A stretch of 64,000 bases of DNA, from NCBI GenBank assembly GCA_964016885.1, contig OZ024752.1, positions 41,354,001-41,418,000 of the forward strand, in the 5' to 3' direction. A program made the position numbers and the translations under genes. This document shows, one piece after another, positions 18,221 to 19,679 of this stretch. The DNA comes from Eledone cirrhosa. Taxonomy: Eukaryota. Each line of letters opens with the position of its first letter. Position 1 is the first letter of the stretch. Below the pieces are notes generated by a model, which was not told the origin of the DNA, ran no database searches, and worked only from the letters and a program-made list of their open reading frames with translations.

Positions 18221-18341
18221 GTATTCACATAAACACACATATATATACACACATACACACACACAGACACACACATAAATATATATATATATATATATAT
18301 ACGATATTAACAAATGGAAACTATATTTATAAAACCATATT

Positions 18342-18406
18342 TATTTCATTATACATATTTCAAGGACACCAAGTTAAATTATGGTGTCCTTTCATCAGAT
18401 AAAATA
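18342..18406 (-). ncRNA. Type I hammerhead ribozyme with canonical core (family C)
   Basis: UAUUUUAU-CUGAUGA-AAGGACACCA[UAAUUUAACU]UGGUGUCCUU-GAAAUA[UG]UAU-A-AUGAAAUA: 8-bp stem I, perfect 10-bp stem II, near-palindromic mini stem III, AUA site. Confidence 0.75.
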
Positions 18407-18511
18407 TAATATAGAGCAGTTTTATAAATAAATATTGACATACCCTTAAAGAATGCAAACATTACTGTTGGAAGCTCCCGGATAGTGGGGTTATAAAACT
18501 GCTCTATATTA

Positions 18512-18576
18512 TATTTTATCTGATGAAAGCACACCAGAATTTAACTTGGTGTCCTTGAAATATGTATAATGAAATA
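18512..18576 (+). ncRNA. Type I hammerhead ribozyme (family C, inverted arm)
   Basis: CTGATGA at 18520-18526, GAAA at 18557-18560; same stems with one C-C mismatch in stem II. Confidence 0.7.
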
Positions 18577-18703
18577 AATATGGTTTTATAAATATAGTTT
18601 CCATTTGTTAATATCGTATTTTTACTCCAATTATTTGTTGAGTGCTTTATATCAGTTATAAAAATATTTGCTTGTTGTATCCCAACAATTTAAATAGAAC
18701 TTT

Positions 18704-18734
<31 letters not shown>

Positions 18735-18736
<2 letters not shown>

Positions 18737-18970
18737 CAAAGAAAGTGTGGTAAGAAACCAGATGGACCATAACGCACCAGAGTACTCAATACTTAGGGTA
18801 GTAGAGTGAGTAATAGGAAAAGAGTCAGGACCCCGACGGCTGAGCTATTGCTCGCACCAGCCAGAGGTATATGATCTTTAATGCGAAGAAATACCAATGA
18901 CGGTTGGAAGATCACTGATAAAGGACTAATTTTATTCATATGTACCCCATTTGCAACAACGCAGCACGCC

Positions 18971-19067
<97 letters not shown>

Positions 19068-19289
19068 GAGAGAGAGAGAGAGAGAGAGATAACAAAGGAA
19101 TTGTGGTAAGGAACCAGATGGACCATAACGCGCCAGAGTACTCAATACTTAGGTTAGTAGAGTGGGAAATAGGAAAAAGTATGACCCCGACGGCAGAGAT
19201 CAAGCTGTTTCGACGGCTATTTCTGGACTGTAGTCCAGAAATAGTCGTCTAAACAGCTTGAGCTCTGCCGTCGGGGTCATACTTTTTCT
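18735..19289. mobile_element. Two family D elements (18735-18848 partial; 19091-19289 complete)
   Basis: Match 20016-20214; the second has the full CTGGACTGTAGTCCAG hairpin centre. Confidence 0.75.
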
Positions 19290-19343
19290 TATATATATAT
19301 ATATATATTTATCTATATAAATATATATATATTTATCTATATA

Positions 19344-19398
<55 letters not shown>

Positions 19399-19679
19399 AG
19401 TTCTATTTAAATTGTTGGGATACAACAAGCAAATATTTTTATAACTGATATAAAGCACTCAACAAATTATTGGAGTAAAAATACGATATTAACAAATGGA
19501 AACTATATTTATAAAACCATATTTATTTCATTATACATATTTCAAGGATACCAAGTTAAATTATGGTGTGCTTTCATCAGATAAAATATAATATAGAGCA
19601 GTTTTATAAATAAATATTGACATACCCTTAAAGAATGCAACCATTACTGTTGGAAGCTCCCGGATAGTGGGGTTATAAA
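19399..19679 (-). mobile_element. Family C single-arm copy with hammerhead at 19524-19588
   Basis: TCATCAG at 19574-19580, TTTC at 19540-19543. Confidence 0.75.

Follow-up and report, generated by a model that had tools for sequence, protein, structure and literature searches.

Minimal hammerhead folds in the pseudo-LTRs of a Hydra-clade Penelope-like retrotransposon of Eledone cirrhosa

That Penelope-like elements (PLEs) can carry hammerheads in their pseudo-LTRs (pLTRs), with a palindromic stem III and cleavage as a dimer, is already published, as the sections drawn on here make clear (Cervera 2014; Craig 2021). Minimal, palindromic, dimer-type hammerheads were described in PLE repeats by Cervera and de la Pena (2014, PMC4209133), whose account, in the sections used, gives them low activity, with slow cutting even as dimers. 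In the part of Craig et al. (2021, bioRxiv 10.1101/2021.04.23.441226) that deals with the clades concerned, only a few families of the Hydra clade were found outside Hydra, and Naiads spread without any hammerhead. In PAc, a Poseidon element of Anolis carolinensis, hammerhead cleavage in vitro depended on protein, core mutants inserted normally, the hammerhead was dispensable for insertion, and the portions of the paper used here report no reads ending at the cut (Frangieh et al. 2024, PMC11167929). The role of the PLE hammerheads is called unclear in passages of two of these sources (Craig 2021; PMC7761336).

The motifs described here lie in a stretch of 64,000 nucleotides of the Eledone cirrhosa genome (assembly GCA_964016885.1, contig OZ024752.1, positions 41,354,001 to 41,418,000), the whole of which is called the window below, and they represent minimal hammerhead folds of type I within the pLTR of a Hydra-clade Penelope-like retrotransposon. 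With the hammerheads presented in the consulted sections of PMC4209133 they share the type I topology, the canonical core, a tiny palindromic helix III and a long helix II, and with the PLEs treated there a hammerhead in each of the two pLTRs, solo copies by the thousand that derive from truncated elements, opposite-strand pairs, and a predicted cleavage as dimers. Unlike the forms shown there, they have no bulged letter between positions 9 and 10.1 and no G10.1-C11.1 pair, and they have an 8-bp stem I and a conserved 1x1 pyrimidine mismatch in stem II; the copy load is at least 66,731, against about 2,000-9,000 per genome in that source. As in the Hydra clade (Craig et al. 2021, in the sections on that clade), the protein has a DKT motif, a CxCX5C linker and, at its C terminus, a GIY-YIG domain without CCHH, and the element combines a hammerhead with (TA)n targets, partial tandems, an inverted truncated copy and a tail at one end; its unit, however, measures about 4.0-4.3 kb where the same text has "generally <3 kb", and its tail about 90 nt where 30-40 bp are given for PLEs. 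As in the portions of the PAc study used here (PMC11167929), the tail is delimited by two putative reverse transcription start sites that lie downstream of the hammerhead, targets are AT-rich and both target strands appear extendable, but PAc belongs to another clade, its ORF starts in stem II with the start sites inside the ORF, and no strand difference in start site is given for it, while in the present insertions the start site nearly always differs between the two arms. The non-LTR retrozymes of animals, as set out in the parts consulted (PMC7761336; bioRxiv 10.64898/2026.07.22.740005), have the type I fold, the weak helix III and the link to PLE pLTRs in common with these motifs, but they are head-to-tail tandem units that have no ORF, whereas the motifs here belong to truncated ends of an element that is autonomous. 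Since the arrangement is known, there is nothing unusual in the finding as such; its new part is the family, a member of the Hydra clade in which hammerheads are unusually numerous, the pair that closes stem II is not G-C and the tail is long. Lunse et al. 2017 is reportedly the main survey of dimer-cleaving PLE hammerheads. In the literature searched, including that on octopus hammerhead ribozymes and as far as its accessible text goes, the family was not found described, and either Lunse 2017 or the supplement of PMC4209133 may cover it; the octopus repeat annotation (PMC13282606), in the sections seen, mentions no ribozyme, hammerhead or Hydra, and in the Penelope literature nothing related to twin priming was found.

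The first-pass annotation had placed CUGAUGA and GAAA at five sites of the window, and both are present at every one of them; the positions that it quoted on the minus strand mark the low end of the heptamer, so that C3 itself lies at 18398(-), 18520(+), 19580(-), 35100(-) and 42246(+). The cuts that it predicted after 18568(+) and 42290(+) are correctly placed. Across the window a loose core pattern has 14 matches where 0.94 +/- 0.85 are expected, a number reached in 0 of 100 shuffles. Each copy is laid out as an 8-bp stem I, the core, a stem II of 3 bp, one mismatch and 6 bp, then GAA, an 8-nt stem III segment, A17 and the 3' strand of stem I, and all five copies have the type I core letters C3 U4 G5 A6 N7 G8 A9...G12 A13 A14 A15.1 with U16.1 and H17. 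The hammerhead numbering and the freedom of position 7 are established knowledge, and a G10.1-C11.1 pair that closes stem II is typical of hammerheads, though not absolute. The description of the core as canonical holds for its letters but not for the closing pair, which is A-U or G-U. Rfam gave 0 matches for the whole window at the gathering score, and at E<=10 the segment 18250-19750 matched generic hairpin models only and no hammerhead family; minimal PLE hammerhead variants are usually detected by descriptors and not by the Rfam hammerhead models.

The copies sit in the following insertions. The first two, at 18342..18406(-) (predicted cut after 18350) and 18512..18576(+) (G12 at 18557), belong to a single insertion of two head-to-head, 5'-truncated pLTR arms (18299..18711), of which the minus arm stops at a short 3' end about 100 nt past C3 and the plus arm at a long 3' end about 190 nt past C3, the tail, with (TA)n beyond both arms. 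Head to head, the two hammerheads would form no dimer in cis and would instead make a long hairpin; in the minus-strand copy the mismatch of stem II is closed by a C>G change private to it. The third copy, at 19524..19588(-) with a predicted cut after 19532, lies in the 3' end of a 5'-truncated element (19398..19986, minus strand, part of the 3' UTR and a pLTR with tail) that is flanked by microsatellites, and its fold is no better than those of shuffles (z = 0.10). The fourth (35044..35108, minus strand, subfamily S2) differs from the other window copies in the 5' strand of stem I, its stem III has decayed to AUAGGUUU, and the inverted insertion around it (35003..35345) consists of a minus arm with the short end and a plus arm that is tail only. 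The fifth (42238..42298, plus strand, subfamily S5) is embedded in an inverted insertion (42016..42337) whose minus arm begins within stem II, and a 146-bp segment around it has 9 identical matches among the 49 listed. A sixth copy, of the S6 type (33509..33579, minus strand, at 33571), with the stem III AUGCGCAU, is cut short within stem I by (TA)n; a pLTR fragment at 47797..47874(-) begins within stem II, and a further one lies at 41818-41940. The copies of the window are inserted in (TA)n, and tblastn found no ORF remnant in the 64 kb, which makes them 5'-truncated ends; they are probably inert by-products.

The five copies had been said to show stem covariation, and this does not stand: two-sided change is seen in only 2 of 21 pairs, the observed paired fraction is attained in 36 of 500 shuffles and the covariation score in 27 of 500, so that five copies do not establish covariation. 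The three versions of stem II quoted as compensatory do exist, but the copy annotated at 19574 reads ACACCA/UGGUAU, with a private G>A change and hence a C-A mismatch, and is not one of them. The variants of the 3' strand of stem I do pair, as U-G or U-A through one-sided changes only, and the copy annotated at 35094 has another 5' strand; the same copy, with 4 of 8 palindromic pairs, departs from the tiny near-palindrome of stem III, which is self-paired at 8 of 8 positions in the other four. The annotation thus overstated the evidence of five copies, and it overlooked the decay of two of them, the sixth copy, the two pLTR fragments and the Penelope-like pLTR setting.

Covariation is present beyond the window, in 17 natural variants from the rest of the genome compared with shuffle nulls. 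These were hand-picked, one per apparent subfamily, from 268 sites in 260 loci, and three of them are single copies among the loci examined. Over 18 pairs, 99.0% of the cells are paired, against 93.7 +/- 0.7 in shuffles (0 of 500), and the proportion is 95.5% (again 0 of 500) when three upper pairs, poorly aligned by MAFFT, are added; six pairs of the whole structure change on both sides, a weaker measure that 11 of 500 shuffles match. Stems I and III are partly selected for in this set, because the variants came from motif-based searches, and since some search patterns fixed these two stems, stem II alone is the clean test: it is 97.1% paired against 84.5 +/- 1.7 (0 of 500), with a two-sided pair count that is not significant (130 of 500). 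Under tree-aware nulls there are 3 unpaired cells where the means are 18-41 (0 of 2000 in all four settings), and double changes on the same branch number 8 against 3.25 (0 of 2000) or 6 against 2.24 (7 of 2000). One pair takes the A-U, G-U and G-C states across the variants, and RNAalifold recovers stems I and II unprompted. It is the covariation across the 17 subfamily variants, and not the five window copies alone, that supports stems I and II. The 10.1-11.1 pair is A-U in 13 variants, G-U in three and U-U in one, never G-C, with the purine-pyrimidine order retained in 16 of 17, and this closing pair may lower the activity; the fourth position of stem II is a conserved 1x1 mismatch, C-C or C-U.

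Stem III takes four forms, AUAUGUAU, AUAUAUAU, AUGCGCAU and AUACGUAU, and is fully self-complementary in all 17 variants. Its two central letters vary as U-G, U-A or C-G, and since they are adjacent they could pair only between two strands; a purine at the first of them occurs in only 315 copies. The pairs A15.1-U16.1 and U15.2-A16.2 do not vary among the 17 variants. As a monomer, stem III would cost 2.5-3.5 kcal/mol in every variant, and for 16 of the 17 the double-hammerhead fold is computed to be lower in energy than two monomer minima together. Against a dimer, only three of the 17 have the stem III duplex in their best two-strand fold. To judge from their letters, the four self-complementary forms would fit cleavage as a dimer.

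The exact pattern of stem I, core and stem III with U7 has 54,848 matches in the genome (3.0 Gb, rich in microsatellites) and its reversed control 0; A, C or G at position 7 adds a further 11,883, for a total of at least 66,731 exact matches, or about 22 per Mb. With G5, the one catalytic position counted in this way, changed, there are only 867 matches (1.6%), as compared with 21.7% for the position 7 variants, a 13.7-fold difference. In the 100 listed of the 11,883 position 7 matches, repeated subfamily variants dominate, and the 100 G5-changed matches listed come from many different subfamily backgrounds, the pattern that decay following insertion would give. With the G5 mutants at the level of decay and position 7 variants amplified, the catalytic letters matter for spread in vivo, and the core and stems are under selection in the copies that spread. 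The minimal type I fold with a dimer-type palindrome, as first annotated, is therefore backed by the subfamily covariation, the selection on G5 and the four self-complementary forms of stem III; as the catalytic letters and the short palindrome are kept under selection, the RNA is predicted, and is likely, to cut itself as a pair. A strict structural descriptor found 14 C3-G8 hammerheads in 60 evenly spaced 10-kb stretches, against 0-1 per shuffle in 10 shuffles, and six of the 14 belong to the same superfamily as the window motif; the density in this sample is lower than that of the pattern count, which indicates that the copies are unevenly spread.

A 282-bp segment around the copy annotated at 19574 has 40 scored full-length matches of 98-100% identity among 1006 candidates, and among 30 loci, several show homology that continues upstream of the hammerhead segment for over 1 kb, into a reading frame with reverse transcriptase (RT) motifs and a cysteine linker. 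At one locus, L040, the order is an inverted truncated pLTR, a hammerhead pLTR, a broken ORF, a 3' UTR and a second pLTR, with the hammerhead cores 4035 nt apart. Two further loci come from 20 that were picked because their open frames are long: in L131 a hammerhead pLTR is followed by an intact ORF of 742 aa, its ATG 187 nt past the predicted cut, and L132 is a full-length element with cores 4297 nt apart. The spacing between pLTRs is thus about 4.0-4.3 kb, a length due to the long 3' UTR. In the element, the ATG comes after the hammerhead and after both 3' ends, and the long 3' ends are followed by TA/CA repeats in 38 of 42 cases. L040 and L132 show the features by which the pLTRs of a PLE with endonuclease are recognized, namely hammerhead pLTRs, an inverted 5'-truncated copy and a tail at one end. 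The three pLTRs of L132 share a stem II variant that is absent from the other loci examined, as would be expected if one template region were copied repeatedly. At 18569-18577(+) in the window, the predicted 3' cleavage product opens with AUG-AAA-UAA, a two-codon frame that is found in subfamilies S1-S3 and is probably incidental, since the other subfamilies do not have it.

The 742-aa protein of L131 has 323 homologs, and the one that is named, from Argonauta, is 39% identical. Neither the ORF fragments nor the intact ORF matched an RT or nuclease family in Pfam, and sequence searches of the PDB gave nothing useful, so that the protein's identity rests on structure and motifs. In a model with pLDDT 90.5, the two best Foldseek matches are telomerase RTs (E 4e-9), a resemblance found by VIA as well (Z 16.8, rmsd 4.7, 287 aligned), and the RT motif YRDD is at residues 352-355. 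The modelled C-terminal domain resembles the GIY-YIG domain of I-TevI (Z 9.8, rmsd 2.1, 88 aligned), with EndoII and UvrC also among its top four structural rows; by Foldseek the match to GIY-YIG is weak (E 0.17). On this model the ORF encodes a telomerase-like RT with a C-terminal GIY-YIG nuclease. The DKT motif is at 118-120, with T in 89 of 105 homologs and S in 16; the CxCX5C linker is found in 90 of the 105, and the nuclease core has no CxxC and lacks CCHH. Together with the C-terminal endonuclease and the (TA)n targets, these marks would place the element in the Hydra clade as Craig et al. (2021) define it, an assignment made from motifs. Minus-strand frames at L035, L037 and L039 contain divergent RT/GIY-YIG fragments with the same cysteine linker, of other Hydra-type families, and a query with the nuclease gave 61,886 first-look candidates in the genome.

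The ends of the copies tell how they may have been made. In 94 distinct copies of S1-S3 the 3' ends are bimodal, 31 at about +100 from C3 and 42 at about +190, the remaining 21 running into the ORF, and the distance between the two positions gives a tail of about 90 nt. Inverted insertions have one short and one long arm in 43 of 45 rows; reduced by hand to independent insertions (18 rows of one duplicated segment counted as one, two duplicate pairs merged, one row at a locus edge dropped), the count is 24 of 25 (binomial 8e-7), in a set in which many loci had been chosen for one long arm. At 57 loci with an ORF start (60 less 3 duplicates), 41 copies start upstream of the hammerhead (the motif is intact in 35 of these), 2 within it, 1 no more than 10 nt from the cut and 13 downstream; no cluster of 5' ends at the cut site was found among these copies, and a loose one near -90 to -125 may be an artefact of the reference length and is given no weight here. 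As the 5' ends do not stop at the cut, cut linear RNA is not the usual template, and the 41 that read through the upstream hammerhead point to cDNA made through a hammerhead that was uncut or rejoined; a circular template and an uncut tandem transcript fit the end data alike. On contig C20 one and the same inverted insertion returns at intervals of about 100 kb, and its spacing on C27 is similar (loci L072-L098; C20, C27, C16, C19), which points to a large tandem segmental repeat.

From the anatomy of the element, the selection on its core and the pattern of its ends we infer cleavage, rejoining and two-strand priming, and we are reasonably confident of the following explanation. The two pLTR hammerheads of a full-length Hydra-clade transcript would pair through the 8-nt palindromic stem III and cut as a dimer after AUA, to give a unit-length RNA, and the RT-nuclease of the element would insert it into (TA)n: the protein would nick the repeat and begin cDNA at two sites that lie some 50 nt and 140 nt downstream of the cut, and copying would then proceed through the uncut or rejoined hammerhead, so that almost all insertions would end up with a hammerhead close to their 3' end. 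A rival reading, that a real fold is kept by selection while cleavage is slow, depends on protein or comes late, with insertion using uncut RNA as its template and the hammerhead acting in RNA folding, packaging or disposal, seems to us unlikely, but it deserves to be taken seriously. The 41 of 57 copies that read through would be explained by it, as would the non-G-C pair at 10.1-11.1, and it agrees with the normal insertion of Anolis core mutants in vitro, where the text used reports no reads that end at the cut (PMC11167929), and with the spread of Naiads without a hammerhead, on the account given by Craig (2021). A rejoined circle would equally give read-through, however, and G5 mutants at the level of decay beside amplified position 7 variants argue against a fold that need not cut.

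It is very unlikely that the hammerheads cut as monomers, with a 2-bp stem III held by protein or tertiary contacts and a palindrome that is incidental, although the two pairs of such a stem are invariant in 17 of 17, the duplex is in the cofold minimum of only three variants and alternating AT-rich sequence is readily palindromic. Against it, the two central letters stay compatible with pairing in three forms, the G-C-rich AUGCGCAU is likewise a perfect palindrome, purines that break the palindrome are as rare as catalytic mutants, and a monomer stem III is unfavourable in all 17 variants. The lack of an ORF fragment in the window by tblastn and the very many short copies could also suggest a non-autonomous retrozyme or SINE family that spreads through its own small RNA; but the copies extend 5' to variable lengths into a common 3' UTR and ORF, a link drawn for subfamilies other than S5-S10, and they are inverted pairs and not head-to-tail tandem units of 150-300 bp, so that we regard this reading as extremely improbable, with more reserve for S5-S10. 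Returning to dimer cleavage of the full-length transcript, a bolder extension of it, which we put forward tentatively and with considerable doubt, is that the genome amounts to a natural mutational scan in which hammerhead catalysis and dimer pairing prove to be required for PLE retrotransposition in vivo, with a dimer cut, rejoining to a circle and two-strand copying suggested. Both target strands would serve to copy the circle, from two fixed start sites with 90 nt between them. If true, this would explain the copies longer than a unit, the one-short-one-long arms (24 of 25) and the selection on G5, and it would settle the role of the PLE hammerhead, against the dispensability found in vitro in the consulted part of PMC11167929. 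Whatever its outcome, the family, which numbers at least 66,731 copies in many subfamilies and has intact ORFs, offers a test system; it gives genome-scale evidence that spreading copies retain the catalytic core and the dimer palindrome, and four palindromes and a non-G-C closing pair are on offer as natural variants.

Several other repeats of the window and the genome have features of this kind. A second hammerhead-like family forms an inverted pair in (TA)n at 9045-9073(-) and 9143-9171(+), with a weaker copy at 32659-32869; it has the core CUGAAGA, a short stem II and a G-C closing pair, and is present in random genome samples too. A third core-bearing repeat, at 34144-34166(-), 34641-34663(-) and 34701-34764, has a putative stem II that is duplicated in tandem and an inverted arrangement. 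A very frequent repeat inserted in (TA)n (18735-18846, 19091-19290, 20016-20215, 30017-30252, 51617-51834 and 61028-61255) ends in a long near-perfect palindrome, with a fold of -122 kcal/mol in one copy; no match to the hammerhead core was found in it, and it may represent an inverted end that belongs to a different family, PLE-like or MITE. Two similar frames at 30353-30664 and 60340-60777 resemble what we take to be the 3' end of a LINE reverse transcriptase. The 60 stretches of 10 kb sampled from the genome (L151-L210) contain at least three further hammerhead families, with an unrelated stem I and a palindromic or near-palindromic stem III, and one U3-A8 hammerhead candidate.
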